This document shows, piece after piece, positions 18,114 through 37,920 of a DNA stretch of 64,000 nucleotides. Within the stretch, counting starts at the first letter, position 1. Each line of letters opens with the position of its first letter. The notes beneath the pieces were generated by a model. The model did not search any database, had not been told where the DNA came from, and saw nothing but the letters and a program-made list of their open reading frames with translations. Source of the DNA: Ancrocorticia sp. GTDB lineage: Bacteria > Actinomycetota > Actinomycetes > Actinomycetales > Actinomycetaceae. The stretch is from assembly GCA_022648165.1 (NCBI GenBank), contig JALCLX010000003.1:180467-244466 (forward strand), in the 5' to 3' direction. The position numbers and the translations under genes are program-made.

Positions 18114-20701
18114 TGGCGAACAGGCTCAACATCAGTTTTGACTCCGACATGCTGGAGTCGATCAGTGCCGAGTTCGACCTGCGTGCTCCGAACAAGGAAG
18201 CACTGCGCCAGCTGGTCTTCACTCTCGACGGTGACTATGACCCGACCGTGATGCAGGTGCTGAATCTCGCCACGGGCGTGGGCAAGACCTATCTGATGGC
18301 CGCCTTCGTGGAGTATCTGCGTCGCCAAGGAGTTGGCAACGTCGTCATCGTCACCCCAGGCAAAACGGTGCAGGCCAAAACGGTGCAGAACTTCACGCCC
18401 GGCTCGCCCCGTTACATCACCGGCGCGGCGGTGCCGCCCGAGGTGGTGACCCCACAGGACTACTCGGCGTGGGTTGCCCGGCAGAACGGCCCGGCCCGAC
18501 TCGCGTTCGGCCGTGAAGTGCCAATGCTGGCGTTTATCTTCAACATCCAGCAGCTCATCGCGCCGAAGGACGCTGAGGGTGACACCCACGGGGCCACGCA
18601 GGATGCGATGCGCCGTAAGCCCCGCAGGTTCGATGAGAACGCCGGCGTGCTCTTCGACTACCTCAAGGGTCTCGATGATCTGGTTGTGATCGCCGACGAA
18701 TCCCACCTCTACGGGGCCAGCGCGGTGGCGTTCAACGCCGCGTTGAAGGAACTCGACCCAGTAGCGGCGATTGGTTTGACCGCGTCGGTGGACAAGGCTA
18801 CCGATCACGTCATTTTCGAGTACCCGCTCTACCGCGCCATCCAGGACAAGTATGTGAAGGCCCCCGTGTTGGCGTTCCGCAAGACTGGATATGGCACCGA
18901 TGAAGCCTCCGAAGAGCAGCAGTTGCGTGACGCGCTGCAATTGCGTGCGCTCAAGCAGGCCTACTACGACTCCTATGCCTCCTCACAGGGCCGTGATCAT
19001 GTGAACGCGGTCGCTTTCGTGGTCTGCTCCGATGTGGAGCACGCCACCCAGGTCGCCGAGCTGCTGCGCACCCCGGAGTACCTCGGCCGAGATGAGGCTG
19101 TGCTGCAGGTGGACTCCAAGCACGAGGATGAGTTGACCCAGCGTCGCCTCGACGAATTGGATCGGCCCGAATCGCCGGTGCTGGCGGTGGTGAGCGTGAA
19201 CAAGCTCAAGGAAGGCTGGGATGTCAAGAACATTGCAGTCGTCGTGACACTACGGGCGATGGCCTCCGAAGTGCTTACCCAGCAGACGATGGGGCGCGGG
19301 CTGCGGCTGCCGTTCGGCCGGTATACGGGTGTGTGGCAGATCGACCAGCTCGACATCATCGCCCACCAATCCTTCACCGAGCTGCTCAACGACGAGAACG
19401 TGCTGCAGCAGTTCGGCCTGGACGAAGCCGTCCCCGAACCCGACAAAGCCAAGGTAGAAGAGGCGATCCGCAAAGCCGCCGAAGAGTCCGGCACGGATAC
19501 AGGTACGCCCACGACCGGCGGTGACCAACCAACGACGACAACCGGTTCTGAACCGGGCACCGGTGTCAGTGGTGAGGTCGCCGGTGGTGTGGCTCCGCAG
19601 CCGGGCACCGTTCCCGTCGGCGGCAGTGATACCCCGGGTGCGGGTTTGCCCGGTGTCGGGGTTCGCACCATCACCGAGCAGGAGGATCAGCCCACCTGGG
19701 AGTTGGTGTCGATCGGACGGAACCCGAGCTTTGCTGACGTGTCCTACCGATTCCCGGTGACGACGATGACTGTGCAGCAGCCGCCCATTGACTTGTCAGA
19801 AATCAGTGACGCCGAGATTGAGCAAGCGGCGCGTCGGGTCACCTCTGCTGGGGACGTGCTGCTGCGCAAAGAGATCATCGCCGCCCTAGGCAAGAAACTC
19901 CGGGCAGAGGATCGAGAAAGCGCCGAAGTCGACTCCGTCCACGTCGACGACGCCGACGCCGAGGAGGCGCTAGTCAAACTAGTGATCAACATGTCGCTGG
20001 TGCCCAAAACCGAACAGACCGCCCGCTACGTCGCCACGTTCCTGGTGCCGAAGTTCATGCGCGCCGTGACGTTCACCGGCTGGACCGTCAAATCCCTCGA
20101 CTCCGCCCGCACCGAACTCCTAGCGCTGATCAAGAACTACACAACCGAGACACTGCGAGCCACCCGCGAGGTGCCGACCATACACCCCAAGTCGATGCCA
20201 GGCACCGGCTACACGCTCCCGTTGGGTGAGAAGGTGCATGACCAGATCGAGAGTCGTGACCAGTTCGTGCGAGGCCGGGTTTACGGCGGCTGGTTCAAGT
20301 CGCTATTCGCCGAGGAGTCCTTCGACTCCTTCACCGGCGAATACCAGCTTGCTCGCCTGCTCAACACGTCGCCGGGGATCGTGTGGTGGCATCGCCTGCA
20401 TCCGCAAGACCAGGCGTTCGTGTACTACAACGCGAAAGACCGCTACTTCCCCGACTTCGTAGCCTTGGACACCAACGGGGTGCATTGGATCATCGAGGGC
20501 AAGGACGAGCGCGGCCGCGATGACGCCAGGGTGCAGGCCAAGCGTAAGGCTGCCGAGGCGTTGGTGCGCCGGTTGGTGGCAGAGGATGCCTACGCCGGTC
20601 AGCACTGGGGATATCTGATCGCCTACGAGCAAGACACCGCCCGTGCCGACTCGTGGGAAGACCTGAAAGCCTTCGCCAGCCCGGTCAGCAACGCCCTGTA
20701 G
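18113..20701 (+). CDS. res: Type III restriction enzyme Res subunit (SF2 helicase + C-terminal PD-(D/E)xK nuclease)
   Basis: Walker A LATGVGKT (18269-18289), DESH (18695-18706), QQTMGRGLR, C-terminal YFPDFVALD...WIIEGKDERG. TGATG overlap with mod. Confidence 0.85.
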   Translation: MANRLNISFDSDMLESISAEFDLRAPNKEALRQLVFTLDGDYDPTVMQVLNLATGVGKTYLMAAFVEYLRRQGVGNVVIVTPGKTVQAKTVQNFTPGSPRYITGAAVPPEVVTPQDYSAWVARQNGPARLAFGREVPMLAFIFNIQQLIAPKDAEGDTHGATQDAMRRKPRRFDENAGVLFDYLKGLDDLVVIADESHLYGASAVAFNAALKELDPVAAIGLTASVDKATDHVIFEYPLYRAIQDKYVKAPVLAFRKTGYGTDEASEEQQLRDALQLRALKQAYYDSYASSQGRDHVNAVAFVVCSDVEHATQVAELLRTPEYLGRDEAVLQVDSKHEDELTQRRLDELDRPESPVLAVVSVNKLKEGWDVKNIAVVVTLRAMASEVLTQQTMGRGLRLPFGRYTGVWQIDQLDIIAHQSFTELLNDENVLQQFGLDEAVPEPDKAKVEEAIRKAAEESGTDTGTPTTGGDQPTTTTGSEPGTGVSGEVAGGVAPQPGTVPVGGSDTPGAGLPGVGVRTITEQEDQPTWELVSIGRNPSFADVSYRFPVTTMTVQQPPIDLSEISDAEIEQAARRVTSAGDVLLRKEIIAALGKKLRAEDRESAEVDSVHVDDADAEEALVKLVINMSLVPKTEQTARYVATFLVPKFMRAVTFTGWTVKSLDSARTELLALIKNYTTETLRATREVPTIHPKSMPGTGYTLPLGEKVHDQIESRDQFVRGRVYGGWFKSLFAEESFDSFTGEYQLARLLNTSPGIVWWHRLHPQDQAFVYYNAKDRYFPDFVALDTNGVHWIIEGKDERGRDDARVQAKRKAAEALVRRLVAEDAYAGQHWGYLIAYEQDTARADSWEDLKAFASPVSNAL

Positions 20702-21419
20702 CTGCGAGTTCGCCTGGGCGCATCACGGGGCTCCAGCGTTGCGGGAGGTCGAGGGTGACGGCCTCGCCGGTGATGAACACGAATCCGAGCCTGCCATCGG
20801 TGAGCATGCAGCCGCCCTCCAGCATGGCAAGGAAGTCCGGGATGTGGAGCGCAAGCTGGGTCGGCGATTCGGTCAGGAGCTTGTCGATCGCCGTGTGGAG
20901 TGTCGATGGGCGTCGCCGCGCACCCGTTGACTGCAGGCTGTCCACGGCCTGATCAACCGCCGTGCTGTTGCGCCCAGCGAGCACCTGCAACGCCTCGGCC
21001 ATCTTCACCAGCAACACCTCCTGGTAGAGGTGGCTGGTGGTGCAGGTGCCGCGCTTGACGTAGTTCGTCGGACACTCCCACACGTCGACCCGGTTCGGGG
21101 TGCCCGAGTGCCAGGTCTTGTGACCGAACGCCCGTCCGCAGTCGCCGCAGACGATCTTGCGGGACAGGCGCTTGCCGAAGGACTTGTAGCCGCGTGGGTC
21201 GACACGGGTGGCGAGCCACGGCAACTCGCGGTCTGCGATGCCGAGAGCCTCGGCGGCGTGGCGTTGGGCGTGGAATGCGTCCATCCACTCGACGGTGTAC
21301 CCGGCGGCGAGGTTTTCGAGGAGGAAGCTGGTCAGCCGGTAGGTCAGTCGGGCTTGTACTGTTGCGAGTTCGGGGTATTGCATGGTGGGGGCTCCTGTCT
21401 TTGCGTCACGTACATACAC
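20685..21419 (-). mobile_element. large serine recombinase fragment (zinc-ribbon and C-terminal region only; no catalytic resolvase domain)
   Basis: RKIVCGDCGRAFGHKTWHSGTPNRVDVWECPTNYVKRGTCTTSHLYQEVL matches the recombinase zinc beta-ribbon. No Ser-nucleophile N-terminal domain upstream. 17-nt convergent overlap with the res end. Confidence 0.6.
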
Positions 21420-21492
21420 GCTCTGATCAGGTCTAATAGCAAGTCGTAAACGGCGATACCTTTTAGCGCTTGCCGAACTATTTGGCGCTCCG

Positions 21493-24400
21493 TTGTCAGC
21501 CTCGACGCACGTGGTTCACGCCGCCCCACAACGCCTCTCGGACAAGCCAGCCACCGGAGCCGATCCGTCCGAATATGCGGCTCGACGGTCAACACTAAGG
21601 CGCGTTTTACCTAGTGGGGAGCGGGTTTCGCCCCATCTGCGTCATCCGCGCACCACAAACCCCTGTATCCACTTCGATACGGTGTGCGAACCTGCGCTCG
21701 GATCAGGTGCATTCGCGATTGAAGCCACGCGGCAACTTGCGGAACAGTATTTGCAGCGCCGGCAAAAAGAACTGGGCCAGACGATTGATCCAGATCAATA
21801 TCCGATCGAACTTCAGCGCGCAAAAACCTACATTGCACTGCACAACGTGTATGGCGTGGACCTGAATGCCACGGCTGTGGAGCTGGCGGAGATCACCCTG
21901 TGGCTGGATACGATGGCGCGCGGCCTTCATGCGCCCTGGTTTGGGCTTCATCTGCGGCGCGGTAACTCGCTGATTGGATGCCGCCGCGCGGTGTTCCGGC
22001 CCGATCAAGTCAAGGACGGATCGTGGCTTACTAATGTGCCCCGGGATGTTTCGCTCTATTCACCCGATGACGTGCTTCCTTCAATTGGGAACGGCATCCA
22101 CTATTTCCTTCTCCCCGCAAAAGGTTGGGGCGCCTCTGCCGATGCGAAAGCCGCAAAAGAACTGGCGCCCGATGCCCTCAAACGGCTCAAATCGTGGCGT
22201 AAGAGCGTCACCCGAAAGCCGAACCACACCCAGTGCCAAGAACTCGCAGTGCTTGCCGAACGCGTGGAGAAACTATGGGGCTTCGCCGTTCAACGCCTCA
22301 CCATTGCCGAAGCGCAAGTGCGCCGCACCGTCCCGGTGTGGGGCGCCGCGGGCCTCCCCGAAGGTGGCGCGGTGACGCGCGAGCAGATCGAAGCATCGCT
22401 TGCGGATCCGGCAGGTGCCTTCCAGCGTCTCAAAACCGTCATGGACGCGTGGAATGCGCTCTGGTTCTGGCCACTCACCGGTGCCGCGGCGAGCCGTACA
22501 CGTCTTGTGAATGGCCAGGAGGAAGCGGAACGTATCGATCCTCCCAGCTTTGCCGAATGGATCGAAACCCTCAAGGATCTGCTAGGCCACAAACCGGAGG
22601 CTACCAGCACCGGGGGAAAACGGTGGAAAGGTGGAGATGCCACACTAGCTAGTGCCGCAGTGTGGAATGAGCTGGGTGCGGCGGAGAAACTGGATCTGGC
22701 AGGCGCAGGAGCCGCGAGCCCACAGCAAATTGCCGAACGCCACCCGTGGCTGGGCGTATGCCGCAGTATCGCTGAGCAGCAGGGCTTCTTCCACTGGGAG
22801 CTCATGTATGGCCACGTATTTCACGCCCATGGCGGCTTCGATATGCAGGTGGGAAATCCTCCGTGGGTTCGGCCACGCGACGACGATGCCGCCTTGCTTG
22901 CAGAATTTGATCCGTGGTGGCAGCTCACCACTAAGCCGCCAGTGCTAGAGGTCAGGCGCCGCCGCGAGCAACTCCTGGCACACGCTGCTACCCGGAGCTA
23001 CTTCTTGAGTGCTTCCTGTGATTTAGCAGCCCAACGAGCGTCCGTCAGTTCGCCACAGGATTATTCCGTGCTTTTGGGGCTCCAGCCCGATTTGTATCGC
23101 TGTTTTATGGCCCAGACATGGCGGCATTCCTCCGCCCGTGGAACCATCGGATTGATCCATCCGGAGACGCATTTTACTGATGAGGCGGCCGGGTTGCTGC
23201 GCCAACATACGTACCGGCGCTTACGCCGCCATTGGCAGTTTGATAACGAACTCATGCTTTTCGACATTGACCATCACGTCTCTTACGGCGTCCACGTCTA
23301 CGGATCTGCGCGCACGCCCGATTTTATTCAGGCGACCTCGCTTTATCATCCGGATACTGCCGTCCGCTCTCTGGATCATGATGGTTCTGGCCCCGAACCT
23401 GGGTTAAAAGACCTCAGTGGGAACTGGGACCTGCGGCCACACAAGAGCAGGATCATCCACGTCACACCGGCGGCGCTGACAGTTTGGCGAGGTGTTCTCG
23501 AAACGCCAGATGTTCCTCCCCAACGTACTCGAATGGTGTACACAGTGAACTCATCTGTGCTGGACGTGCTGGTCAAGGCATCGCAAGCCCAGCGTATCGG
23601 CGATTTGGACCCGCTATTCTCAGCAGGATGGCACGAAACAGCTGACTTCAACCGTGGCCGTTTTGTCAAAGAGTGGGGCCCGGTGAGCGCCTGGGATGAC
23701 GCCATTCTTCAAGGCCCACATCTGCATGTCTCGTTGCCATTCTTCAAGTGGCCCAATAGAACAATGAAACATAATCAGGATTGGAACGGCATCGATCTAG
23801 AGGCCCTTGCCCCAGATGAATTGCCGATTACTTCCTATAAGCCAGCAGGCAGCCGCGAGGCATACGAATCGCAGTACACGCACTGGCAGGTGGGCGGCCG
23901 CGTGCTGGCGGCGCGGGACTTTTACCGTATCGCCTGGCGAAGGATGGCTGCCAATACCGGCGAGCGAACACTTATCTCAGCGATAATCCCACCCGGGTCG
24001 TCTCACATTCACCTGATGTGGGACATGGCACTGCCAACCTTGGGAAGCTCAAAGCTTCTCACTATCGCAGCTTCTATGAGTTCGCTCTTACTCGATCTTC
24101 TCATTCGAGTAGTACCGAAGAACGACATCGTATTTCCAACGATCCGAAGGCTGCCTTTAGTCAACAACAAGAGAATCTCAGCTCTTCTCATTATCCGAGC
24201 TCTTGAGCTCAACTGCCTCACCGAGGCCTACGCACCCTTGTGGCATGATGCGCTGGAAGAAATTGCGGCTGAGGATTCTCTCACCTCCACCATTACTGAC
24301 GAGAGCTTCTATGGGTGGACGGGCGGAATCGACTATCCAGGCAGGCGCCCACTGTGCGCGATCGAGAACGAGTGGACACCCGAATCGCGCCTCACCCGCG

Positions 24401-24747
24401 CCTCGGATCGCCGGCAGGCTCTGGTGGAAATCGATGCATTGGCGGCATTGGGCCTGGGGATCTCCGCCGATGAGCTCTGTTCTGTGTATCGCACCCAGTT
24501 TGGAGTGCTCTATGGTTACGATCATGAGCGCGATTATTTTGATGCGAATGGCCGCCTGGTGCCAAAATCGGTGATCGACGTGTGGAAGAAAAAAGGCAAC
24601 GCGATCTCAACGGAGGAACGTACGGCCGTCCACCCGCAAAGCGAGGCAGACTACGTTTATGAGCTCCCGTTCCGTTTGTTAGATAGAGAGGCGGATATGC
24701 GCCGCGCGTATAAGACCTTTGAGCAAAGGCTTGGGAGCGCACAATGA
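21493..24747 (+). CDS. large gamma-class amino (N6-adenine-type) DNA methyltransferase, Eco57I/type IIG-like, 5' end unresolved
   Basis: Motif I EPALGSGAF (21688-21714). Motif IV in FDMQVGNPPWVRP (NPPW 22855-22866). ~600-aa C-terminal region. ORF opens with TTG, has no RBS, and its first ~60 codons are not protein-like. Confidence 0.75.
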   Translation: MSASTHVVHAAPQRLSDKPATGADPSEYAARRSTLRRVLPSGERVSPHLRHPRTTNPCIHFDTVCEPALGSGAFAIEATRQLAEQYLQRRQKELGQTIDPDQYPIELQRAKTYIALHNVYGVDLNATAVELAEITLWLDTMARGLHAPWFGLHLRRGNSLIGCRRAVFRPDQVKDGSWLTNVPRDVSLYSPDDVLPSIGNGIHYFLLPAKGWGASADAKAAKELAPDALKRLKSWRKSVTRKPNHTQCQELAVLAERVEKLWGFAVQRLTIAEAQVRRTVPVWGAAGLPEGGAVTREQIEASLADPAGAFQRLKTVMDAWNALWFWPLTGAAASRTRLVNGQEEAERIDPPSFAEWIETLKDLLGHKPEATSTGGKRWKGGDATLASAAVWNELGAAEKLDLAGAGAASPQQIAERHPWLGVCRSIAEQQGFFHWELMYGHVFHAHGGFDMQVGNPPWVRPRDDDAALLAEFDPWWQLTTKPPVLEVRRRREQLLAHAATRSYFLSASCDLAAQRASVSSPQDYSVLLGLQPDLYRCFMAQTWRHSSARGTIGLIHPETHFTDEAAGLLRQHTYRRLRRHWQFDNELMLFDIDHHVSYGVHVYGSARTPDFIQATSLYHPDTAVRSLDHDGSGPEPGLKDLSGNWDLRPHKSRIIHVTPAALTVWRGVLETPDVPPQRTRMVYTVNSSVLDVLVKASQAQRIGDLDPLFSAGWHETADFNRGRFVKEWGPVSAWDDAILQGPHLHVSLPFFKWPNRTMKHNQDWNGIDLEALAPDELPITSYKPAGSREAYESQYTHWQVGGRVLAARDFYRIAWRRMAANTGERTLISAIIPPGSSHIHLMWDMALPTLGSSKLLTIAASMSSLLLDLLIRVVPKNDIVFPTIRRLPLVNNKRISALLIIRALELNCLTEAYAPLWHDALEEIAAEDSLTSTITDESFYGWTGGIDYPGRRPLCAIENEWTPESRLTRASDRRQALVEIDALAALGLGISADELCSVYRTQFGVLYGYDHERDYFDANGRLVPKSVIDVWKKKGNAISTEERTAVHPQSEADYVYELPFRLLDREADMRRAYKTFEQRLGSAQ

Positions 24748-27700
24748 CCGAGCTGCTCCCGGTTGATCAAGCGCACGCACTCACCGGCACTTTGCTGGAG
24801 TTCTTGGGAACCACATTCAGCTTGGACGCCCCAACGCGCGGCGCACTCAACGAGTTCCTCACTGATGAAGTCACCGGTATTTTTCGCGGACCATACGTGC
24901 GCGTGCGCTTGCCTTTTGCCCCGGCGCAGAACAACTGGACAGAGCTGCTTCCCGCGCATAAAGAAGGTTTCACTCCGTACAGCCACCAAGTTCGTGCTTT
25001 CCAGCGATTGAGTTCTGCCCATGGGCATGCGCCCGAACCCACCATGATCACTACCGGAACGGGCTCTGGAAAAACGGAGTCATTCCTTTTCCCGATCCTG
25101 GATCATGTAGTTCGCGCCAAACAGCGCGGAATACGTGGGATGAAGGCCCTGATCCTCTACCCCATGAATGCGCTGGCACAAGATCAGGCGAGGCGCTTAG
25201 CCGGGCTGATCACCCAGGTGCCCGCCTTCGCAGGAATCACTGCTGCACTGTACACGGGCGAGAACCCACAGAACGGCCGCATCACCGTCTCTTCTAGTGG
25301 GTTGATAACGGATCGTGGCACAATCCGGCGGGAAGCTCCCGATATCCTGCTCACCAATTACAAGATGCTGGATCAGCTGCTACTTCGCCACGCAGATGCG
25401 GCGCTGTGGGAGCAGTCGGCCCAGAGCCTCACCTACCTGGTGATCGACGAGTTCCATAGTTACGACGGCGCGCAAGGTACGGACGTTGCGATGCTGTTGC
25501 GCCGCCTCACACTGGCAATCGAGGCTTACAGGGGCGATACCGAACACCTTCCACTCGCGGGAATCACTCCGGTGGCCACCTCCGCAACACTCGGGGACAG
25601 GCGAGATCCCGCGGCGATGCTGGGCTTCTTCGAAACTGTCACGGGGTACCACGTGAGCGGCGACGCCGTCGTGACTGAAACCCGGTTGAGCTATGCCGAT
25701 TGGGCCCAGAGTGCACGCGAACACACCGCCGAAAGAAAACTGCATCCCTTGGAGCTTGACGATCTGGTAGCACAAGATGTCCGGGCAGTACTGGAATCCA
25801 TCCAATCGCAAGCGCAAAGTGACGTGGGCACGGGGATCGCCACTGATCCTGGGCGAGCCGCGCGCCTGGTGCTGAGCCGGCTGTACCACACAGATGCCGA
25901 GGAGCATCCCGTCCTCACGAATTACAGCGATGAGGAACTGCTGGAGTTGGCCGCCGCACACCCGCTCACCGAGACGATTGCTGGCGCCACCCAGAAGGCT
26001 ATACCGATCGCTGAACTCACGAAGATGATCTTTGGCTCCCATCTGCGCCGCGCTACTGACGCTGGCGTGGCAGACCTGTTTACTGGCATCTATCTTTCAG
26101 TTCTCTCTCACCTCCGCGCGGTCTGCGGCAGGAATGCGTTGACGATCGACGTAAACCTGTGGATCCGGGAGCTCACACGCATCGACCGGATCGTCTCCCC
26201 CGATACACCAGCGTTCCACTGGGCGGACGATGGGGCGATCGAACAGGCCGTGCTTCCCGCGATTTACTGCAGAAACTGTGGGCGCTCAGGCTGGGGAGTG
26301 TTGCTGGAGCCCACGGGGCTGGGGCTAGCGCGCAACGATCGTGCTATCCGGGGTGAACACGCACGCGGGTCCGAGCGCTTCCGGCCGCTGATCTTCGCCC
26401 CCGGAGAGGCGGAAATGCCCGGCGATGACGCACCGGCACCACTCTGGTTGGATATGGCAAGCCGGATGCTGCGCGCTGATACCGATACTGTGGAATCCAG
26501 CCTGCTGGTACCCGTACTCACGCACACGGGCGACGACGCAGGAAAGGACTCGAAGAATGACGTGTGCCCCGCCTGCGGCGCGCGAGATTCCATCCGTTTC
26601 CTGGGATCTGCGATTGCCACCCAGTTGAGCGTGGCACTGTCCTCACTACTTTCGACGCCTGGTATGAACGGCCGCGAGCGCAAGGCCTTGGTGTTCACTG
26701 ATTCTGTGCAGGACGCAGCGCATCGCGCCGGATTCGTGCAGGCACGCTCCTATAGTTTGACGTTGCGTGCGCTTATGCGCCAGGCGCTCGATGAAGGCCC
26801 CGCCACACTCACCGAACTCACACAGCGGATGCTCACCGCTGCCGGTTCAGATTCTCACCGGCGTTACGCATTACTGCCGCCCGAACTTGCCGAGATTCCG
26901 AATTTCCGGCGGTTTTGGGAGCAACCAGGCCGGCATGACCGGCGGACTCTTGCGCGCGTCACTACACGGCTCAGCTTCGATGTACAGCTCGAATTCGGGC
27001 TGCGATCATCCACCGGGCGCACACTTGAGGCGTCCACCAGTGCAGTGGTGGGTTACGATATCGCCGATGCCATACTGATCGCTGCCGCGCGGGACGTATT
27101 GCAGCAGGCCAATCAGAGCACCCTGGACGGCAGGGCATTCTTTGGCGGAGCGGAACCCACGGAGTCCGAGCTGCTGCGCTGGGCCATTGGCTTTCTGCAC
27201 CGCATGCGCATCCGCGGAGCAATTTCCCACAACTGGTGGAAGAAATTCCGTACCAAAGATGGAAACCGCTGGTGGATTACTGGTGGCAGAAAGCGCAACG
27301 ACGGAATGCCGGGGTTTGGCCACGGGAATTCCGCGCCCGGATTTCCGGTGATCGGCGCACGTGAAAGGATCGGGGAAGATCTTGAGCCCGTGGGCTCACC
27401 GGCTGGTTGGTATGCAATGTGGACGGCGAAGGCACTCCACGTTTCGCGCCCGGAGGGGGCAAGCCTTGCCAACGCTTTGATGCGGCGGCTGGAGGCGCGC
27501 GAGGTAGTTGAGGTTCTACCATCAGAATCCCGGCATACAACATATGCACTGCCTCCCGATCTGCTTCTTGCCGAGCCCGTCACCGACGCGATGCTCACCG
27601 GCGAACCGATTGCTCTGCGTTGTACGGTGTGCGACGCCGTCGTCCACGGTTCCCCACGAACTATTCGGGCACTTTCTGGTGGTCCTTGCCTGATGGGGCG

Positions 27701-30700
27701 CTGTGCTGGAACCTTGGAACGCACGGTACCCGGCGACAATTTCTACCGGCGAATGTATGCCAGCCACGGAGCGCGCCGCGTGGTTGCCCGCGAACACACC
27801 AGCCTGTTGGAACCACAGCTGCGGCTGCAGTACGAACAGGCTTTTAAGGCATCTGATCCGCCAGCAGATGCTCCGAACGTGCTTGTTGCCACTCCAACCC
27901 TAGAAATGGGCATCGACATCGGCGATCTTTCCGCTGCCATGCTGGCATCACTCCCGAAATCCGTCGCCTCATATCTGCAGCGCGTGGGGCGCGCGGGGCG
28001 GCTGACTGGCAACTCCTTGGTGCTCTCATTTGTCACCGCCCGCGGCGATCAGCTCCGCCGTTTCGCGCACCCTGAAGAAACTATCAATGGCGCGGTGCGG
28101 CCACCGGCAACATATCTCAATGCCTTAGAGATTCTGAAGCGCCAGTATCTTGCGGCCGCTGCTGACGCCTTGAGCCGTGAATCATCCGCTTTTGATCCGC
28201 GGAAAGCTGGTGCAATCCTTGATCCTTCCTCTCATGCGCATCTCCTGGAGCAACTGATCGCAAAAACTGAAGAGCCTGCTACGCTCGCCTCTTTCCTCGA
28301 AGTGTTTTCTCGGGGCGCCACCGCCGCGCATCTGCGCCCCGATACTATCCACAGCCTCCAGGATTGGGCGATGCCACATAACTCAACAAGCGGCGTGGCG
28401 CAACGGTGTTACCAGGCCGCCGCGAAGTGGAAGGCACGGCTTCAATCGCTTACTCACGCAGAAGGAGAAATAACGAAGGCAATCCCCGAACTAGAGGTGC
28501 GGGCGAAATCCCCATCTGCGAGCAGCGAGGATAAGCAGGCGTCCCGATCTGCGGCCGCGAATCGGCGCCATGTGGTAAGCCAAATCGCCACACAACGAGA
28601 CCAACACTGGATCTCCGCCATGGAAGAATACGGGTTGTTCCCCAATTACACGCTGATGGACGATTCCGTAACGCTTGATGCCCAGCTCTCATTCATGAAT
28701 CCGGAAACGCAGGATTATGAAACAGAGGAATTGGAAGTCGGGCGCTCTTCTGCCATAGCACTCCAGGATTTCGCACCGGGGAACACGTTCTATACGCACG
28801 GCTACGGGATCGCGATCGATGCCGTTGATCTGGGCAGAGACAACGAGAATATCCATCAATGGGCCTGCTGCGCCCAGTGCGGTTATGTTGCGGATCTTGG
28901 CGTCCAGGGATCGGAACTACGGCCACCTGCCGTGTGCCCGCGCTGCGGTGCGGACGGACTTGACGGCGCAGCTCAACGAGTGGCTGTTGTGGAACTGGAC
29001 CGCGTATCTGCGGTTTCGCGGCGCGACGACGCCCTTATTGACGATCGTGCAGAAGAACGCCAACACCGTGCCTTCACAACAGTCACACTGGCAGATATTG
29101 ATCCCGCAACAAGTAACTCCTGGTTCGTTGACGGCACCGAATTTGGAGTGCGGTATTCACGCGAAGTCGTAATGCGATGGATCAACACCGGACCGTCCGC
29201 GAGCAGGGGCCCCTCCCTCAACGTGGCCAACCAATTGGTACCTGTGCCAGCCTTTCGGCTGTGCGCGCATTGCGGAAAACTTGATACGGATTCCGGGCAG
29301 AACACTCCACGGGAGCATCGCCCATGGTGCCCGCAGCGCACTGCGCTGAAGGAAGACAACGTTGCGATTACATTAGGCCGGCACCTCGCTACTGAAGGTC
29401 TGCTACTGCGCATCCCGCGTTCCATTACCGTGGGTGAAGATTTTGCCTTGCCATCCCTCACAGCCGCATTGTTTCTAGCCCTCCGTGAACACTTGGGCGG
29501 AGATCCAGACCACCTACGCGTTGTCGCTGCTCCGGATCCTTCACCAACATCCCCAAGCAATCCACCCGGCCTGCTGATTTACGACACGGTTCCAGGGGGA
29601 ACAGGCTATCTTGCAGAACTCGCAGAGCCCGAAACTCTGTGGGACATCCTCAAGAAAGCCTATGACGTGCTGAGTGCCTGCAGCTGTCAAGATACCGGTG
29701 CCCTCGCATGCGAAAAGTGTTTACTTCCCTTCGCACCACCCAGCGACGTGAACCACGTCTCGCGCGCTGTTGCAGCCCGATCTCTGGCCAGAATTCTCAC
29801 CATAGAACAGGACCACGATTCGCTTGGCACAAACGATCTTCCGTGGAGCCATATCACCAATGACGATCCTGGCGAAATGGGCATCGAATCATACCTCGAA
29901 CAACAGTTTCGGGCGGTGTTGAAGGATCGCTTTACGCATGAAGGCGGAACCGTCCAAGAAAGGCCCGGGCCAGACGGCACGATCATCAACTTGACCACAC
30001 CGCAGCACGAACCCATGCGCGTTGATCCGCAGGTCAACCTTGCCGGCTCTCGGCCCGATTTCGTTGTGACTTTCGCAGACGCCGCACGCGCGCCTGTTGC
30101 CATATTCACGGATGGACGCGCGTTCCACTTCTCCCCCGCCTGCAATCGGGTCAAAGACGATGCGGAAAAACGTGAAGCACTGCGTGCCAGGGGTTACGCT
30201 GTGATCTCACTAACTGCGGCCGATCTGGTGCCGCATCAAGAACGCTTTTCGCCACCCTGGTACAACCCCGCAGTCACGGATGCGATTATGGCGGACGCGA
30301 CATCTGGGCTCTCCCGGACCACCTATGAATTATGCGAAGATTCGGAGCTGGACTTACTCCTTGAGTTCATCCGCAACCGCAACACTACCAGCGCCATCGA
30401 GAAACTTGGGCAGTGGCTTCCGCTTTATTTCTTCTCCGCGCAAAGCGAGCGCATCTCTGTTGGAGCGAATGTCGATTTGGCAGAAATCGCACGCGCGGCA
30501 ATTGATGGTAAAGATCTTTCAAGTTACGCCGGGCCCATGCCAGCGGCTGTGTGGCTTCATGGCACGGTTGCGGTGGTGACACGCCAACACGAAGATGGCG
30601 TGCGGTTCGATTTTGCCGCTATGCTGGACGACCGCGATGAGGCCGTTTCTGAACAGAACGTCGATTCATGGCGCATATGGTTGCACCTCATGAATCTGCT

Positions 30701-31109
30701 TACCCTGCGAACTGACCCCACTGCCGTCACCACCTACACGTCCAGCGCTGGTCCCATCGATATCCCTGTTACTACACGTGAAACTCCACTCGCGGACCTC
30801 ACATGGCAACCAGAAGGCGGATTGTCCATCGCATGGAAGGAAACGTTGGCGGAGGCACAGCCGGAAGAACGCCACATTCTTGAAGAGTTACTTCGGCAAC
30901 GCGGCAGTGCCATCCCACTGCCAACACTCGGATGGGAAGTGGGCGACGGTATCCCGCTGAGCATCGCCTGGCCCGATTTCAAAATCTCCGTAGCCTGGCC
31001 CGGAATCACGTCCCAAGATGAAGAGGAGATCGCGGCCGCAGGGTGGACAACCATTCCCGCCGATACGGACGCCATCGTGCACGCACTTAAAGACGCAGGA
31101 GGAATCTGA
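24744..31109 (+). CDS. 2121-aa SF2 (DEAD/DEAH-like) helicase fused to a DUF1998/MrfA-type zinc module and a Vsr/DUF559-like PD-(D/E)xK domain (DrmAB/DruE-like)
   Basis: Helicase: Walker A TGTGSGKT (25053-25076), DEFH (25446-25457), VLVATPTLEMGIDIGDL, QRVGRAGR (~27978). DUF1998-type: CCAQCG...CPRCG (28866-), LLIYDTVPGGTGY (29571-), ACSCQ...CEKC. Nuclease-like: RPDFVV...FTDGRAFH...DDAEKREALRARGYAV (30051-30200). ATGA overlap with the methylase gene. Confidence 0.8.
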   Translation: MTELLPVDQAHALTGTLLEFLGTTFSLDAPTRGALNEFLTDEVTGIFRGPYVRVRLPFAPAQNNWTELLPAHKEGFTPYSHQVRAFQRLSSAHGHAPEPTMITTGTGSGKTESFLFPILDHVVRAKQRGIRGMKALILYPMNALAQDQARRLAGLITQVPAFAGITAALYTGENPQNGRITVSSSGLITDRGTIRREAPDILLTNYKMLDQLLLRHADAALWEQSAQSLTYLVIDEFHSYDGAQGTDVAMLLRRLTLAIEAYRGDTEHLPLAGITPVATSATLGDRRDPAAMLGFFETVTGYHVSGDAVVTETRLSYADWAQSAREHTAERKLHPLELDDLVAQDVRAVLESIQSQAQSDVGTGIATDPGRAARLVLSRLYHTDAEEHPVLTNYSDEELLELAAAHPLTETIAGATQKAIPIAELTKMIFGSHLRRATDAGVADLFTGIYLSVLSHLRAVCGRNALTIDVNLWIRELTRIDRIVSPDTPAFHWADDGAIEQAVLPAIYCRNCGRSGWGVLLEPTGLGLARNDRAIRGEHARGSERFRPLIFAPGEAEMPGDDAPAPLWLDMASRMLRADTDTVESSLLVPVLTHTGDDAGKDSKNDVCPACGARDSIRFLGSAIATQLSVALSSLLSTPGMNGRERKALVFTDSVQDAAHRAGFVQARSYSLTLRALMRQALDEGPATLTELTQRMLTAAGSDSHRRYALLPPELAEIPNFRRFWEQPGRHDRRTLARVTTRLSFDVQLEFGLRSSTGRTLEASTSAVVGYDIADAILIAAARDVLQQANQSTLDGRAFFGGAEPTESELLRWAIGFLHRMRIRGAISHNWWKKFRTKDGNRWWITGGRKRNDGMPGFGHGNSAPGFPVIGARERIGEDLEPVGSPAGWYAMWTAKALHVSRPEGASLANALMRRLEAREVVEVLPSESRHTTYALPPDLLLAEPVTDAMLTGEPIALRCTVCDAVVHGSPRTIRALSGGPCLMGRCAGTLERTVPGDNFYRRMYASHGARRVVAREHTSLLEPQLRLQYEQAFKASDPPADAPNVLVATPTLEMGIDIGDLSAAMLASLPKSVASYLQRVGRAGRLTGNSLVLSFVTARGDQLRRFAHPEETINGAVRPPATYLNALEILKRQYLAAAADALSRESSAFDPRKAGAILDPSSHAHLLEQLIAKTEEPATLASFLEVFSRGATAAHLRPDTIHSLQDWAMPHNSTSGVAQRCYQAAAKWKARLQSLTHAEGEITKAIPELEVRAKSPSASSEDKQASRSAAANRRHVVSQIATQRDQHWISAMEEYGLFPNYTLMDDSVTLDAQLSFMNPETQDYETEELEVGRSSAIALQDFAPGNTFYTHGYGIAIDAVDLGRDNENIHQWACCAQCGYVADLGVQGSELRPPAVCPRCGADGLDGAAQRVAVVELDRVSAVSRRDDALIDDRAEERQHRAFTTVTLADIDPATSNSWFVDGTEFGVRYSREVVMRWINTGPSASRGPSLNVANQLVPVPAFRLCAHCGKLDTDSGQNTPREHRPWCPQRTALKEDNVAITLGRHLATEGLLLRIPRSITVGEDFALPSLTAALFLALREHLGGDPDHLRVVAAPDPSPTSPSNPPGLLIYDTVPGGTGYLAELAEPETLWDILKKAYDVLSACSCQDTGALACEKCLLPFAPPSDVNHVSRAVAARSLARILTIEQDHDSLGTNDLPWSHITNDDPGEMGIESYLEQQFRAVLKDRFTHEGGTVQERPGPDGTIINLTTPQHEPMRVDPQVNLAGSRPDFVVTFADAARAPVAIFTDGRAFHFSPACNRVKDDAEKREALRARGYAVISLTAADLVPHQERFSPPWYNPAVTDAIMADATSGLSRTTYELCEDSELDLLLEFIRNRNTTSAIEKLGQWLPLYFFSAQSERISVGANVDLAEIARAAIDGKDLSSYAGPMPAAVWLHGTVAVVTRQHEDGVRFDFAAMLDDRDEAVSEQNVDSWRIWLHLMNLLTLRTDPTAVTTYTSSAGPIDIPVTTRETPLADLTWQPEGGLSIAWKETLAEAQPEERHILEELLRQRGSAIPLPTLGWEVGDGIPLSIAWPDFKISVAWPGITSQDEEEIAAAGWTTIPADTDAIVHALKDAGGI

Positions 31110-33490
31110 TGCCAACAGTCATACTGCAACGTGAGTTCTCCAAACAAAACGATCGGCTGGATGGCTCTGTAAGCGCAGCAGTTTTCCGATTCCTTGCGAA
31201 ACTCCAAAAATCCGACACATCGACTGGACTGCATATCGAGCACATCGTTGGAGCTGCCGATCCACGAGTACGTACCGGCCGTATTACCGATTTCTACCGT
31301 GCTGTGCTGTATAAGGTGGATAATCCCGGCACTGAGCCTCTTTACATTTTCCTGGGAGCCCTTCCACACGATGACGCGATCGCGTACGCAAAAACCGTGT
31401 CCGTCAGCGTCAACCCCATCTCCGGCGTTGCCGAACTCAAAAGGATTAAAGCACCAGATAGCATCCCGCTCTCCAGGCACGAAACCCCACCCTATACCGG
31501 AGAAACGGATGCAGATTCGGCAACGCATTCAACTGCGCCGTCGCCGGCAAATCCACCCGAAGAGCACACAACCACACCGGTACGCCAAACAGGACCTGTT
31601 TACCCCATACTTGCGGCAACCGGATACACGATCCAGGACCTCGTTGGCCTTGGTATCGATCCCGAGTTCGCGCACAAGGCATTCGATGCGCGCGGGGAAG
31701 ACGAGCTGCTCGATATAGCGGATCAGGCACCCGCAAAATGGCAAGGACTCGCCATCATCAGCATCGGTACCGGCGCCACCCTGGAAGAGGTGCGAGAAGA
31801 ACTGCTCTCCGCCGACGACGGCACAGACCAATCGACTGCGGACGAACCGGAGCTTGTCAAGGCGTTGCACCACCCCGCATCACAATTGGACTTCGCATTC
31901 ATTGAGGCAGACGAAGATCTACGTGCTGCGATTGAGGATTTGGATTTCGCGCAATGGCGAGTCTTCTTACACCCAGAACAACGCCGTTATGTTATGCGTG
32001 ATCGCAATGGCGCATTCCGACTCTCCGGCGGCGCTGGAACAGGGAAAACCGTCGTATTGCTCCACCGCGCGCGGCATTTGCAACACAAAAACCCTGATGC
32101 CCGAATCGTGCTCACAACATTCAACCGAACACTGGCGCAATCGTTGGATGAGGGACTTGAAACACTCGATCCCGAGCTCACGCGCGCACGCGGCATCGCA
32201 AATCCAGGGATTCTCGTCGCTGGCGTTGATCAGCTTGTTATGCAGGTTCTTCGGGCTAACGCCAGCGACTTCGTAGGCGAATCAAGCATGGGCGCGCAGG
32301 CCGCGCAAAGAATACTGGGCGATGATCTCCCTACACGCGAGTTCATGGACGTGCTCAGCAGTTCTCAAGAAAGGGCCGTCTGGGAGGCTGCAATGGCCCA
32401 GGCGCCACACTTACCTGAGGCGCTTCACAACATTGCGTTTCTCGCTTCTGAATACTCCTTGGTAGTTTTGCCGAATCGGATCACACGTCAGGCAGAGTAT
32501 CTGCGGGCACGCAGGCCCGGGCGCGGCAAACGCCTCGGCCGCGGCGAGCGCATTGGCGTGTGGGAAGCAATCTCTCAGTTCCGTATTCGCTGCGCAATCG
32601 AAGGGTTCTCAACCTGGGATGAGAAAGCACAGATTGCTGCGCAGTACCTTGACGAATGCGTGGGCGTGGGGCGTGGCCGCCCGGCCGATTCAGTACTTGT
32701 TGACGAAGCACAAGATTTGAGCCCGTCTCATCTTGTATTCTTGCGAGCGCTCGCCCGCAAAGGGAAAAATGATTTATTCCTTGCCGAAGATTCACAACAG
32801 CGCATCTATGGGCACAAAGTTGTGCTATCGCGCTACGGTATTGAAATTCGCGGGCGTTCGCGCCGGCTTTCATTGAATTACCGCACCACGGCAGAGAATC
32901 TGGCGTATTCACTGAGCCTTCTTGAGGGAGTCGCATATGAGGACATGGACGGTGAGGCAGTTGACAACCGTGGCTATCATTCCATCCGATCCGGGCCCGA
33001 ACCGCGCATCGTTCACTGCCAGAGCGCAAGCGAGGAACTAGAAAAGCTCACAGCCACACTGCAATCGTGGATGGACCAGCACGTAGAGCCCGGTAGCATC
33101 GGCGTGCTATGTTACGCCAACAGGACCGCTGAAGGCCTGGCAAGGCATTTGACGGAGCTCGGCATTGCGGCAAAGGCCGTCTCCGGGGAAAGGCCGGCAA
33201 CGCCGGCACGCAAAGGTACGCATACTGGCCACACGAAGCAGGGCGCAAACGAAGGCAGCTACCAACCGGATGCCGCGATCCAAGTGATGACGATGCACCG
33301 TGCAAAGGGCATGGAGTTTTCGCGCGTGGTGCTCTTCAACGCCCTGGACGATGTTGATCATGCTGCGAACAGCTACTACACCGGCGTACCGGATGAAGAG
33401 CGCGATGATTATATGCAGCAGCTGCGATCTTTGATCTATGTGGCAGCGTCTCGCGCGCGCGACGAGCTGGTGGTGGTGACGCAGAAGTGA
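31109..33490 (+). CDS. UvrD/Rep-type SF1 helicase with N-terminal RelE/ParE-like domain
   Basis: Walker A LSGGAGTGKT (32027-32050), LVDEAQDLSP, VMTMHRAKGMEFSRVVLF, IYVAASRARDELVVV. N-terminal ...RTGRITDFYRAVLYKVDNPGTEPLYIFLGALPHDDAIAYAK. TGATG overlap with the upstream gene. Confidence 0.8.
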   Translation: MPTVILQREFSKQNDRLDGSVSAAVFRFLAKLQKSDTSTGLHIEHIVGAADPRVRTGRITDFYRAVLYKVDNPGTEPLYIFLGALPHDDAIAYAKTVSVSVNPISGVAELKRIKAPDSIPLSRHETPPYTGETDADSATHSTAPSPANPPEEHTTTPVRQTGPVYPILAATGYTIQDLVGLGIDPEFAHKAFDARGEDELLDIADQAPAKWQGLAIISIGTGATLEEVREELLSADDGTDQSTADEPELVKALHHPASQLDFAFIEADEDLRAAIEDLDFAQWRVFLHPEQRRYVMRDRNGAFRLSGGAGTGKTVVLLHRARHLQHKNPDARIVLTTFNRTLAQSLDEGLETLDPELTRARGIANPGILVAGVDQLVMQVLRANASDFVGESSMGAQAAQRILGDDLPTREFMDVLSSSQERAVWEAAMAQAPHLPEALHNIAFLASEYSLVVLPNRITRQAEYLRARRPGRGKRLGRGERIGVWEAISQFRIRCAIEGFSTWDEKAQIAAQYLDECVGVGRGRPADSVLVDEAQDLSPSHLVFLRALARKGKNDLFLAEDSQQRIYGHKVVLSRYGIEIRGRSRRLSLNYRTTAENLAYSLSLLEGVAYEDMDGEAVDNRGYHSIRSGPEPRIVHCQSASEELEKLTATLQSWMDQHVEPGSIGVLCYANRTAEGLARHLTELGIAAKAVSGERPATPARKGTHTGHTKQGANEGSYQPDAAIQVMTMHRAKGMEFSRVVLFNALDDVDHAANSYYTGVPDEERDDYMQQLRSLIYVAASRARDELVVVTQK

Positions 33491-34497
33491 GCACGGTTGG
33501 GTTCTTCACTCTCGCGATAGCTGCTGGACTGCTCACGGAAACAGTCTTCCGGTTGCTACGCCTTCGCCGTATCGAGGAGATTATCGGTGCAACGCCACTC
33601 TCCGTTTACCGAAACTCTCCGATGATGTACATGTCCGTTCAGGAGGCCTGTTATATGGGGCCGCGCATGATTCCCCGCTACGTTGTGTTTCGGTTCGTTC
33701 CACCGCTCATCGCTTTTCTTCTCGTTGCGGCCATATCAGATCGCAATGAGATCGATTCTCGTACCACTCTGCTCGGCTTGCTGGCTACAGCGATAGTTGC
33801 GGCGATTGCACGCGTCATCCCCAGTGGAGAGCCCACACCATTATCACTCAAAGTTCACCTGTTTCAAGGCATCGTATTATTGCTCGTCTTCGCTGAAGGA
33901 ACTCTCGTCTGGGTAGCCTCTAATCTCTTAGATCTATCAGCACTCGCCCCGACCTCCCAGGGACTCGTAGACAGCTTGTGGTCTGCGATGCTCGTTGCAG
34001 CCGTCATATTCCTTTATCTTTCGTTGCTTCGAGTAAAACCACCAATAGATCCCCTCGAGCAATCCCTTACCAACGCCAAAACTGATGCAGTATTGGCACG
34101 GTTCGCGTCACTCCAGAGCCAGTTTCGGCACATCGTCGAAAGCGCATGCAGCACAAACCATTGCTCGAAGAACCTGCTGTGGGCGGTCTTGATCTACGAG
34201 GATATGAATAGGCCGGCGTTCGTTCGAATCATTGAAAACTGGCTGGTCCGCCTTCCGGGCGTCAGCATGACCGTCGGAATCGGGCAAGTCGCCTCGCTCA
34301 CGCCGCTAACTGATGAACAGAGTATTGAACGGGCGGCTTCGTTACTTGCTAACTCGGAAGCCGTCATGACCCGTTACGATCTTGAACAAAACACAGACGC
34401 TAACCAGAAACTGGCAAAATACAACGATGATCCCAGATACACGGATGAAATCTGCCAGATACTTGACATCGTAAACATTGGTAGTCCGGGTGCATGA
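33487..34497 (+). CDS. polytopic membrane protein (about 5 TM) with C-terminal lysozyme/SLT-like motif
   Basis: GTG start overlaps the helicase TGA (GTGA). Hydrophobic segments across aa 5-200. LLWAVLIYEDMNRPAF...SMTVGIGQV (34174-34290) resembles the E-x-x-x-x-P ... G-x-x-Q pattern of lytic transglycosylases. Confidence 0.6.
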   Translation: MSTVGFFTLAIAAGLLTETVFRLLRLRRIEEIIGATPLSVYRNSPMMYMSVQEACYMGPRMIPRYVVFRFVPPLIAFLLVAAISDRNEIDSRTTLLGLLATAIVAAIARVIPSGEPTPLSLKVHLFQGIVLLLVFAEGTLVWVASNLLDLSALAPTSQGLVDSLWSAMLVAAVIFLYLSLLRVKPPIDPLEQSLTNAKTDAVLARFASLQSQFRHIVESACSTNHCSKNLLWAVLIYEDMNRPAFVRIIENWLVRLPGVSMTVGIGQVASLTPLTDEQSIERAASLLANSEAVMTRYDLEQNTDANQKLAKYNDDPRYTDEICQILDIVNIGSPGA

Positions 34498-34519
34498 TCT
34501 CCGCGCGAATACAGCAAGC

Positions 34520-35185: not shown

Positions 35186-35392
35186 GGTTTCCCTCTCATC
35201 TACTTCCCGGCCGCGACGAGGTCAGCATTCATTCTCCTAGTTGGTGGCACCGACGTGAGCTCTACACAGGCGAATGAGACACACCGAATCCATCTTGCCC
35301 AAGATAACGATCATTTACTATGTCTTGCCCCGAATCAGGGATCCCATGACGCCTAGTGTTATTACCATTAGACGTCATGAGATCACGCAGTG

Positions 35393-35957: not shown

Positions 35958-36073
35958 ACCCAGGCCGACGGCACCAGTTTCCAACAGATTCACGCTCAAA
36001 ACCTCATCCAGATTTCCCATTGACCGGTATCCTTTTACTGACTCGGATCTCAACAGCACAGGTAATTCCGGAG

Positions 36074-36658: not shown

Positions 36659-36749
36659 ATCAGATTTCCACATTAGTTTGCGTCATACACCCCGGTTATA
36701 CTAATCTCAAATATTGTCGTCAGCGACAAGTATCTCCAAGGAGTCTCTC

Positions 36750-37758: not shown

Positions 37759-37920
37759 GGGAATTGCCGTATACCCCGCTACACCAACGCATTCTTTCCT
37801 GTAAGTCGTAGCACGTACGTGGTCCACATCTCGCACATCTTTTTTTGCCTCCAGATTCGCGGGCCGACGCTATACGGAAACAATTGAGAACTCTGATGCT
37901 GACAGCACGTCGGATCGTCG

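Follow-up and report, generated by a model that had tools for sequence, protein, structure and literature searches.

ArmC of an ARMADA type II system as the probable identity of the 2121-aa ORF

To which system does a single polypeptide that combines a superfamily 2 (SF2) helicase, several cysteine modules, a DUF1998 domain and a nuclease belong, and is the locus that encodes it still a working one? The question is raised by an open reading frame (ORF) of 2121 codons in a 64,000-nucleotide (nt) stretch of contig JALCLX010000003.1 of Ancrocorticia sp., the whole of which was analyzed and is called the window below. The ORF (24744..31109, + strand) starts at an ATG and encodes 2121 amino acids (aa); in the original prediction, made from the sequence alone, it was read as DrmA plus DrmB, or as DruE, with an effector nuclease newly fused on. 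Our comparisons make it very probable that the protein is instead ArmC, the YprA-family (DExH, SF2) helicase-nuclease of ARMADA type II, encoded in a locus that is either reduced (armB'CD) or partly disabled.

The YprA family has been split into clades in work that also defined ARMADA II and placed the ArmC clade as sister to DruE (Bell et al. 2025, PMC12458937). In ARMADA II operons, which are abundant in Actinomycetota, the genes follow the strict order armA (a BrxHII/RapA-like Snf2 helicase), armB (a PglX-like methyltransferase), armC and armD; members of the ArmC clade normally carry a C-terminal Vsr-type nuclease that is predicted to be active, and inactivated EEP-like and Vsr-like domains often come after it (PMC12458937). 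Placement of the ORF in ARMADA II was based on pairwise BLASTP comparisons with ArmC and DruE of one E. coli strain, together with operon context, and the experimentally studied island of this strain, ATCC 8739 (NC_010468), served as the reference for the ArmB, ArmC, ArmD and DruE comparisons. What is said of E. coli ARMADA II is taken from PMC12458937 and bioRxiv 10.1101/2025.09.22.677730.

Compared with ATCC 8739 ArmC (WP_000937965.1), the ORF product gave 603 bits at 29% identity over 1929 columns, an end-to-end alignment with about five times the score of the DruE comparison, in which only the helicase and DUF1998 motifs aligned (118, 55 and 35 bits). The two ArmC proteins are alike in length (2121 versus 2113 aa), in having the Walker A Lys at K110, in their Zn modules, DUF1998 and nuclease motif (RPD(F/Y)V...AIF.DG.AFH...D..KR), and in a further C-terminal region that closes with a degenerate second copy. 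Their surroundings are also alike, with an ArmD carrying the same N-terminal extension directly downstream and a PglX-like ArmB directly upstream. They differ in that identity is 29% only and the hosts are actinobacterial and enterobacterial, respectively; furthermore, the window locus has no armA, its armB is missing the first ~580 codons, and it adjoins a type III restriction-modification (R-M) system rather than lying on a tRNA-integrated satellite-like element. The assignment to ArmC is made because of this island comparison, the operon context of relatives and a survey of related loci, the last two of which are described below.

A DruE label has its own support, since the best PADLOC models for the protein were DruE3 (E 1.8e-87), DruE1 and DruE2, and the best matches among PDB sequences were 9tu7 and 9wae, helicases of ~2000 aa with a DruE-like look, along with the MrfA/YprA structure 6znp (E 3.7e-21); TIGR03817 also matched, at 1.1e-35. 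However, the PADLOC matches were split into 2 to 6 stretches and the likeness to DruE was confined to helicase and DUF1998 motifs, whereas E. coli ArmC aligned end to end. There is no ARMADA model among those of PADLOC-DB 2.0 (2023), and a pipeline based on it would therefore label the protein DruE. Searches of the ORF and its neighbors with Pfam and PADLOC found neither a PLD domain, which type III DruE has, nor a Druantia partner (druA-D of type I, druM/F/G of type II, druH of type III), and the neighbors are instead ArmB-like and ArmD-like. As to a DISARM DrmA+DrmB fusion, class 1 DISARM has Snf2-like and PglX-like partners in common with ARMADA, but the PADLOC DrmA models covered only ~70 residues of RecA2 (aa ~1024-1095, 56-57 bits) and NCBIfam DISARM_DrmA scored 23.7 bits against a cutoff of 999. 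Moreover, helicase and DUF1998 lie here in one gene, while in DISARM (DrmA and DrmB, with DrmC and either DrmMI/DrmD or DrmMII) they are in separate genes and the nuclease is a separate PLD protein. We therefore regard DruE of Druantia, or a DrmA+DrmB fusion, as a very improbable identity for the protein; of the families brought into the comparison, it is ArmC of ARMADA II that fits.

A long multidomain ORF could also arise when separate helicase, DUF1998 and nuclease genes are fused by an assembly or annotation error. We found no point that supports such an artefact here, and rejected it. The ORF is uninterrupted, with no frameshift or stop across its 6.4 kb, and among the matches listed there were at least 120 full-length homologues (97-100% query coverage, 44-98% identity, 2062-2185 aa), many of them from isolate genomes and more than 100 of them from Actinomycetota. 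An independent assembly (Logan SRR30200687) holds a ~98%-identical (97.6%) ORF of the same 2121 aa, and E. coli ArmC itself has 2113 aa; we give the artefact next to no credence. The single-chain architecture of helicase, Cys modules, DUF1998, nuclease and degenerate copy is thus real, and it is the normal one for the ArmC clade. The nearest ArmC among the matches listed was that of Actinomycetaceae bacterium L2_0104 (53% identity), 53% was also the best identity in a GTDB scan for armC relatives, and a metagenome scan for close relatives of the window allele gave none above 48%.

The helicase core is intact and accompanied by conserved cysteine clusters

All features of armC given here lie on the + strand, and a script located every peptide motif quoted in the original prediction where it had been reported or at most 3 nt away. 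The N-terminal region with the RecA1 lobe (24744..25733, ~aa 1-330) matched Pfam DEAD at aa 84-284 (E 2.9e-18, 66.6 bits) and the C-terminal part of RecA2 (27795..28004) matched Helicase_C at aa 1018-1087 (E 5.2e-10, 40 bits), both above the gathering score, in agreement with the SF2 helicase first proposed. Walker A (TGTGSGKT, 25053-25076) contains K110 and motif II (DEFH, 25446-25457) contains D235, and motifs V and VI are represented by VLVATPTLEMGIDIGDL (27879-27929) together with QRVGRAGR (27978-28001); the SF2 motor of ArmC is intact. K110 and D235 correspond to K110 and D234 of E. coli ArmC, Walker A/B residues whose mutation abolishes defense (PMC12458937).

Of the 24 Cys residues in ArmC, 19 fall into five clusters, and no clustered Cys varied when 17 full-length homologues were aligned. 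A putative Zn-binding module between the helicase lobes (26241..26663) has two CxxC pairs, C509/C512 in YCRNCG (26265-26282) and C608/C611 in CPACG (26565-26579), and LVFTDSVQDAAHRAGF lies at 26688-26735. A second putative module (27606..27713; C960, C963, C982, C987), with CTVCD at 27621-27635 and GPCLMGRC at 27681-27704, is located inside an insertion that splits RecA2. Two further Zn modules lie upstream of DUF1998 (28851..29336). One consists of C1376, C1379, C1398 and C1401 (CCAQCG from 28866, CPRCG from 28935) and had a weak match, at aa 1376-1404, to the NCBIfam zinc ribbon CxxC_CxxC_SSSS; the other consists of C1507, C1510 and C1529 with H1525 (CAHCG from 29262, WCPQ at 29325-29336). 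The fifth cluster (C1646, C1648, C1656, C1659; ACSCQ from 29676, CEKC at 29709-29720) belongs to the DUF1998/MrfA Zn-binding domain (29460..29723), in which LLIYDTVPGGTGY starts at 29571 and which matched Pfam PF09369 MZB at aa 1573-1660 above the gathering score (E 6e-14, 52.9 bits versus a 24.2-bit cutoff). The profile search thus confirmed the proposed DUF1998, and the several Cys modules proposed with it are all invariant, but only the last cluster lies inside the match; CCAQCG/CPRCG and CAHCG/WCPQ, which had been counted as part of the DUF1998-type region, are separate modules upstream of it.

In published ARMADA II ArmC proteins, RecA1 is followed by a BrxA-like helical insert, RecA2 opens with an inserted beta-barrel Zn module and also has a MarR-like insert with a Zn module at its end, and the OB-CON region bears two Zn-carrying inserts (PMC12458937). 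The conserved CxxC pairs of the window ArmC appear, from their place in the sequence, to stand where the published RecA2 insert modules would be expected. MrfA/YprA (6znp), the founding structure of the family, has the same RecA1, RecA2 and OB-CON-DUF1998 canopy on single-stranded DNA (ssDNA), but it is ~750 aa long, without large inserts, extra Zn modules or a fused nuclease, and it acts with the MrfB exonuclease in repair, not in defense.

The C-terminal third probably contains an active PD-(D/E)xK nuclease and a degenerate copy

An AlphaFold2 model of ArmC aa 1681-2121 (40-sequence alignment; mean predicted local distance difference test score, pLDDT, 88.1) contained three folded units, with a disordered linker at aa ~2009-2024. 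When the first unit (aa 1710-1830; 29871..30233) was modelled alone, the pLDDT was 89.5. In this unit, which includes RPDFVV (from 30051), IFTDGRAFH (30102-30128) and DDAEKREALRARGYAVISL (30156-30212), the residues E1719, P1771-D1772, D1790-G1791, H1795, D1806 and K1809-R1810 did not vary among 40 actinobacterial homologues and E. coli ArmC, so that the catalytic-type D/E-x-K residues are conserved throughout this set. Foldseek searches of the PDB with the aa 1710-1830 model placed VRR-NUC 4qbn (probability 0.99) and TnsA (0.98) on top, with further matches to BstEII, SfsA, Hjc, NucS, EcoRV and the RAP domain of FASTKD4 (best template modelling score, TM, 0.52). Against BFVD, a database of predicted viral structures, probabilities reached 1.00 with TM 0.5-0.56, and the matches included homing endonucleases, a DUF559 protein and a "group I intron-associated VSR homing endonuclease." At the sequence level, Pfam MTES_1575 matched 20 of 23 homologous nuclease domains (best E 6e-6, below the gathering score), and weak matches to Vsr, RAP or DUF2726 were seen in a few of them.

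Several results weigh against so specific an assignment. No Foldseek match of aa 1710-1830 reached E <= 1e-3, Vsr itself (1vsr) was outside the top 50 PDB matches, and the MTES_1575 match to the nuclease domain failed to reach the gathering score. Searched as a profile against the PDB sequences, this domain retrieved only 3r3p, at an E of 0.46 that is suggestive though not significant, and phmmer with the C-terminal 441 aa retrieved none of these sequences even at E 10; for the same 441 aa, NCBIfam gave no match and Pfam gave the sub-threshold MTES_1575 alone. With the whole three-domain model, Foldseek returned no PDB match below E 0.03, and the top ones were spurious long alignments (THO complex, YcaO).

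We conclude that aa 1710-1830 are a PD-(D/E)xK nuclease of the Vsr/DUF559-like group that is probably active. The fold named in the original prediction is backed by the AlphaFold2 model, by Foldseek against both PDB and BFVD and by the invariant residues, and there is accordingly a nuclease fold in the C-terminal third. Because no Foldseek match reached E <= 1e-3, 1vsr was outside the top 50 and the Pfam matches were sub-threshold, the Vsr subtype is the weaker part of the claim, drawn from weak, mutually consistent signals and from Bell et al. (PMC12458937). Endonucleases of the Vsr/DUF559/MTES_1575/I-Bth0305I type have the same order of motifs (a helix Glu, a strand "PD," "DG..H," and an Asp/Lys/Arg helix), but theirs are free-standing whereas the ArmC nuclease is fused to a helicase, and every ArmC sequence match to them lies under the curated threshold. 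If the ArmC stretch RPDFVV...AIFTDGRAFH is set beside the E. coli Vsr pattern (RPDFVV...VIFTHGCFWH), then D1772 presumably equals Vsr D51, T1789 equals T63 and H1795 equals H69, and D1790 would fall at the position of Vsr His64.

The middle unit (30261..30743, ~aa 1840-2000), a helical bundle with a beta-sheet, was modelled at pLDDT >90; in ARMADA II ArmC this position is often held by an inactivated EEP-like domain (PMC12458937). Foldseek with the three-domain model assigned neither the middle nor the last unit to a fold. The last unit (30825..31106, ~aa 2028-2121; pLDDT 87-97) is an alpha/beta domain with a degenerate second "WPDF" motif, and LPTLGW...KISV (30918-30992) and AAAGWTTIP (31032-31058) lie in it. 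In the 40 homologues only P2060, E2065, G2069, W2076 and W2101 of this domain were invariant, and the Asp of WPDF was not conserved. The degenerate second copy noticed from the sequence thus stood up, and the pattern is consistent with an inactivated nuclease copy that would match the "inactivated Vsr" of PMC12458937. The extra C-terminal domains were absent in 21 of 149 relatives (~1/7), which end near aa ~1800-1900 and keep the first nuclease domain. Such relatives include, for example, survey loci L047, L063, L067, L069-L071, L075, L080, L082, L084 and L085.

ArmD follows ArmC throughout the related loci, while armB' is truncated

The gene downstream of armC, armD (31109..33490, + strand), encodes a 793-aa UvrD/GajB-like superfamily 1 (SF1) helicase with an N-terminal extra domain. 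It matched Pfam UvrD-helicase and UvrD_C and PADLOC GajB, and it aligned with E. coli ArmD over the full length, N-terminal domain included (271 bits); the N-terminal domain itself had no significant Pfam match. The gene upstream, armB' (21493..24747, + strand), is a 1084-aa ORF from a TTG start that encodes an N-terminally truncated PglX-like N6-adenine methyltransferase. It matched positions 551-1404 of the 1532 in PADLOC PDLC03611, residues 579-1538 of E. coli ArmB (460 bits) and actinobacterial ArmB from residue 560/591 to the end, so that ArmB homology in the window starts at nt ~21619-21679; motif I (CEPALGSGAF) and NPPW are retained. The armC gene is translationally coupled to both neighbors, its ATG overlapping the armB' stop by 4 nt and its own stop overlapping the armD start by 1 nt.

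For the operon survey, related loci (160 in all) were drawn from GTDB genomes and metagenomes. The operons of Actinomycetaceae bacterium L2_0104 and Isoptericola variabilis consist of Snf2 (~990 aa), methyltransferase (1551-1650 aa), YprA (2160-2177 aa) and UvrD (759-811 aa) genes. ArmD was found downstream of ArmC in every locus with enough downstream sequence (132 of 132), and complete ArmA and ArmB were found upstream in 69 of the 91 loci with at least 8 kb of upstream sequence. In several of the other loci an insertion of 3-6 kb parts ArmB from ArmC and moves ArmA out of the fetched flank. The survey and these relatives agree with the ARMADA II definition and with the gene-deletion data (PMC12458937), and by analogy with that system ArmD is predicted to be an obligate partner of ArmC. 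In 10 of the 91 loci, the 8-10 kb upstream of the ArmC-ArmD pair contained neither ArmA nor ArmB.

These ten are L022, L037, L039, L049 and L065, from Nocardia spp., and L060, L047, L070, L144 and L162. The genes upstream of the Nocardia africana pair are an unrelated SF1 helicase and a WXG100-like protein, and some of the ten loci apparently have two tandem ArmD-like genes.

Between armB and armC, several relatives carry an inverted partial copy of the armB 3' half together with a tyrosine recombinase gene (L001, which is the same as L008, Actinomycetaceae bacterium L2_0104, at 5930-9913; L014, L041, L061, L079, L087, L089, L116, L131). In L001, a 302-aa Phage_integrase gene accompanies inverted repeats of 354 nt and 313 nt that are 100% identical. 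Such an organization resembles a shufflon, in which inversion would change the specificity of the ARMADA methyltransferase; neither "shufflon" nor "invert" is among the words of PMC12458937. The arrangement is absent from the window.

The locus lies at a conserved junction with a type III R-M block

Upstream of armB' are a type III mod gene (16278..18113), the res gene (18110..20701) and, on the - strand, a Zn-ribbon ORF (20685..21383/21419) that belongs to a 232-aa family and matched Pfam Zn_ribbon_recom only. The same mod-res-Zn-armB'-armC-armD layout was found on three metagenome contigs (L120, L129 and L132), which are 92-95% identical to the window at the nt level over 17353-21994, that is, from the 3' part of mod through res, the Zn ORF and the intergenic region to the first ~500 nt of armB'. 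Past 21994 the likeness is at the protein level only (ArmB' ~50-56%, ArmC 41.5%, ArmD 41% identity); the armC ORFs are intact in L120 (2117 aa) and L129 (2116 aa).

The family of the Zn ORF is small, discrete and conserved in host-associated Actinobacteria; its 81 database clusters, with 45-99% identity, come from Cutibacterium, Actinomyces, Corynebacterium and Propionimicrobium. In the three contexts examined, the Zn-ribbon gene is convergent with type III res or a res remnant and divergent from a short gamma-class methyltransferase gene that is of another family each time (Type ISP-like, MmeI-like). Nucleotide likeness between such contexts and the window stops at various points, namely 21489, 21692 (motif I) and 21994. 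The simplest reading is that mod-res-Zn is a conserved anchor beside a site where methyltransferase-led cassettes are swapped by recombination within the methyltransferase genes.

Two other readings of the locus were rejected. A private deletion that left a scar between armB and a truncated serine recombinase does not account for the same junction in L120, L129 and L132 or for the Zn-ribbon family elsewhere, and the idea that the type III R-M system stands in for ArmA is unsupported, as the mod-res-Zn232 block also adjoins short, unrelated methyltransferases where neither ArmC nor ArmD is present. A search for island boundaries in window positions 11000-41000 yielded no direct or inverted repeats that were convincing, and no tRNA gene turned up in the window.

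Divergence from the sister assembly is a mosaic

The independent assembly mentioned above (locus L003) has the same layout as the window. Relative to it, the ratio of non-synonymous to synonymous substitution rates (dN/dS) was 0.098 for armC and 0.22 for armB'. Synonymous divergence (dS) was 0.94 for mod, 0.19 for res and 0.46 for armB', and within armC it fell from 0.69 in the RecA1 part to ~0.01 in the middle, with 0.003 for armD and 0.005 for a core transporter gene. This mosaic over window 14906-33487 indicates repeated recombination within the island. The Zn-ribbon ORF was tried as a neutral dN/dS control and failed, having a value of 0.19 and belonging to a conserved 232-aa family, which makes it no pseudogene. 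Since divergence is mosaic and the Zn-ribbon value is similar, the low dN/dS of armC is no clear indication that selection is acting now.

Is the locus a reduced module or a disabled one?

Canonical ArmC needs ArmA, ArmB and ArmD. In E. coli NCTC 12900, removal of any one of the four arm genes abolished defense, and single armA, armB, armC and armD mutants of EDL933 lysed on infection, the armD mutant being less affected (PMC12458937). The window locus thus represents a reduced armB'CD module or else a system that is partly disabled, and four observations weigh against a working ARMADA II. ArmA is absent from the whole 64-kb window (tblastn with two actinobacterial ArmA proteins). ArmB is cut at its N-terminus, with the first ~580 residues missing from a protein that at full length has ~1550-1650 aa. 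In E. coli ArmB a YYTP stretch, which we take to be motif X of gamma-class methyltransferases, stands ahead of motif I; nothing in the part of ArmB that remains here corresponds to it. Finally, the mosaic of low dN/dS could reflect recombination with functional donors. With all four genes essential in E. coli, and ArmA and the ArmB N-terminus missing here, defense activity of the window locus appears doubtful.

It is quite possible, with a chance somewhat short of even, that the ORF is ArmC by descent in a locus that is now a dead remnant, its armC and armD being intact only because the loss of armA and of the armB 5' third, or the latest recombination, was recent. The missing ArmA, the truncated ArmB' with no YYTP counterpart and the E. 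coli requirement for all four genes all speak for this, as does the low dN/dS mosaic with its similar Zn-ribbon value; the Zn-ribbon gene beside short solitary methyltransferases in Cutibacterium, Corynebacterium and Propionimicrobium also resembles cassette debris. However, two armB'CD alleles that are 41% identical share the same junction and have intact armC ORFs of 2116-2121 aa. In addition, the window armC is free of frameshifts and stops over 6.4 kb, dN/dS is low for both armC and armB', all catalytic motifs are intact, and ArmC-ArmD pairs with neither ArmA nor ArmB recur in several Nocardia species and elsewhere.

The layout might, on the other hand, not be decay at all: armB'CD, or ArmC-ArmD alone, would in that case form a minimal but working helicase-nuclease defense, independent of ArmA and of full-length ArmB, beside a mod-res-Zn232 anchor at which cassettes were repeatedly swapped. 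Its support comes from the junction shared with 41%-identical intact alleles, from the Zn-ribbon gene beside other methyltransferases in three genera and from the Nocardia pairs; we consider it unlikely. What we retain is an ArmC in a locus that is reduced or partly disabled.

A proposed mechanism for ArmC

How ArmC may work can be proposed by analogy with the biochemistry of MrfA, DrmAB and DruE and with ARMADA genetics. MrfA and DrmAB move along ssDNA while their OB-CON-DUF1998 canopy closes over the strand (PMC12458937). For DruE, biochemical work has demonstrated nuclease action that is coupled to the helicase and takes place at duplex-ssDNA junctions of replication-type intermediates (10.64898/2026.05.12.722862, 10.64898/2026.05.13.724313, PMC13192584), and E. 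coli ARMADA II gives direct protection without abortive infection, for which ArmC K110 and D234 are needed (PMC12458937). From this knowledge, the RecA lobes of ArmC would be expected to load on ssDNA where phage DNA has a junction or an end and to translocate or unwind with ATP, while the canopy and the Zn modules would hold the strand and the C-terminal Vsr-like nuclease would cut the DNA delivered by the motor. The outcome would be direct defense, not abortive infection.

DruE is the best available mechanistic model for ArmC, which would work like DruE without being DruE. Druantia III DruE (E. coli; PDB 9tu7) is likewise a YprA-family DExH helicase of ~2100 aa with DUF1998 and a C-terminal nuclease, but this nuclease is a tandem PLD (one inactive, one active) instead of a PD-(D/E)xK domain, its partner is DruH instead of ArmA, ArmB and ArmD, and the sequence likeness is limited to motifs. 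The helicase-driven nuclease in one chain that the original prediction had proposed is still the best mechanistic reading, but it describes an architecture already published in 2025.

Genes flanking the locus

Downstream, a 336-aa membrane protein gene with no family match (33487..34497) has a GTG start that overlaps the armD stop. It opens a variable segment between armD and the core flank (33487-39243) that also contains a 221-aa ORF on the - strand and an HSDR_N-domain protein gene (37921..39024, - strand); L003 holds only an Abi_2 gene there. From 39243 on, the flanks of the window and L003 are 99.4% identical, and the nearest named homologue of the flanking transporter is from Schaalia naturae (76% identity). 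On the other side, a 645-aa fusion of a NERD nuclease domain and a UvrD/AAA_30-type helicase (12484-14421, - strand; PADLOC RTasNERD-Hel, C3a187 "NERD+UvrD") is probably another defense gene, at the left edge of the island.

Implications

The domain architecture of ArmC, with its fused Vsr-type nuclease and degenerate copy, has been in print since 2025 and is therefore less new than the original prediction supposed; the ORF adds little to it, and the remaining novelty is the reduced locus and the anchor-and-cassette pattern. For annotation, the family assignment matters in that the 2023 PADLOC-DB would call the protein DruE and RefSeq calls its homologues only "DEAD/DEAH box helicase." The invariant residues provide candidates for mutagenesis, namely K110, D235, E1719, D1772, D1790, H1795, D1806 and K1809. 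With armC and armD intact, no armA and a short armB, the truncated locus is a natural experiment on whether ArmC-ArmD can act alone, and the attachment of divergent cassettes to one conserved anchor illustrates, in a small but concrete way, the exchange of modules in defense islands.

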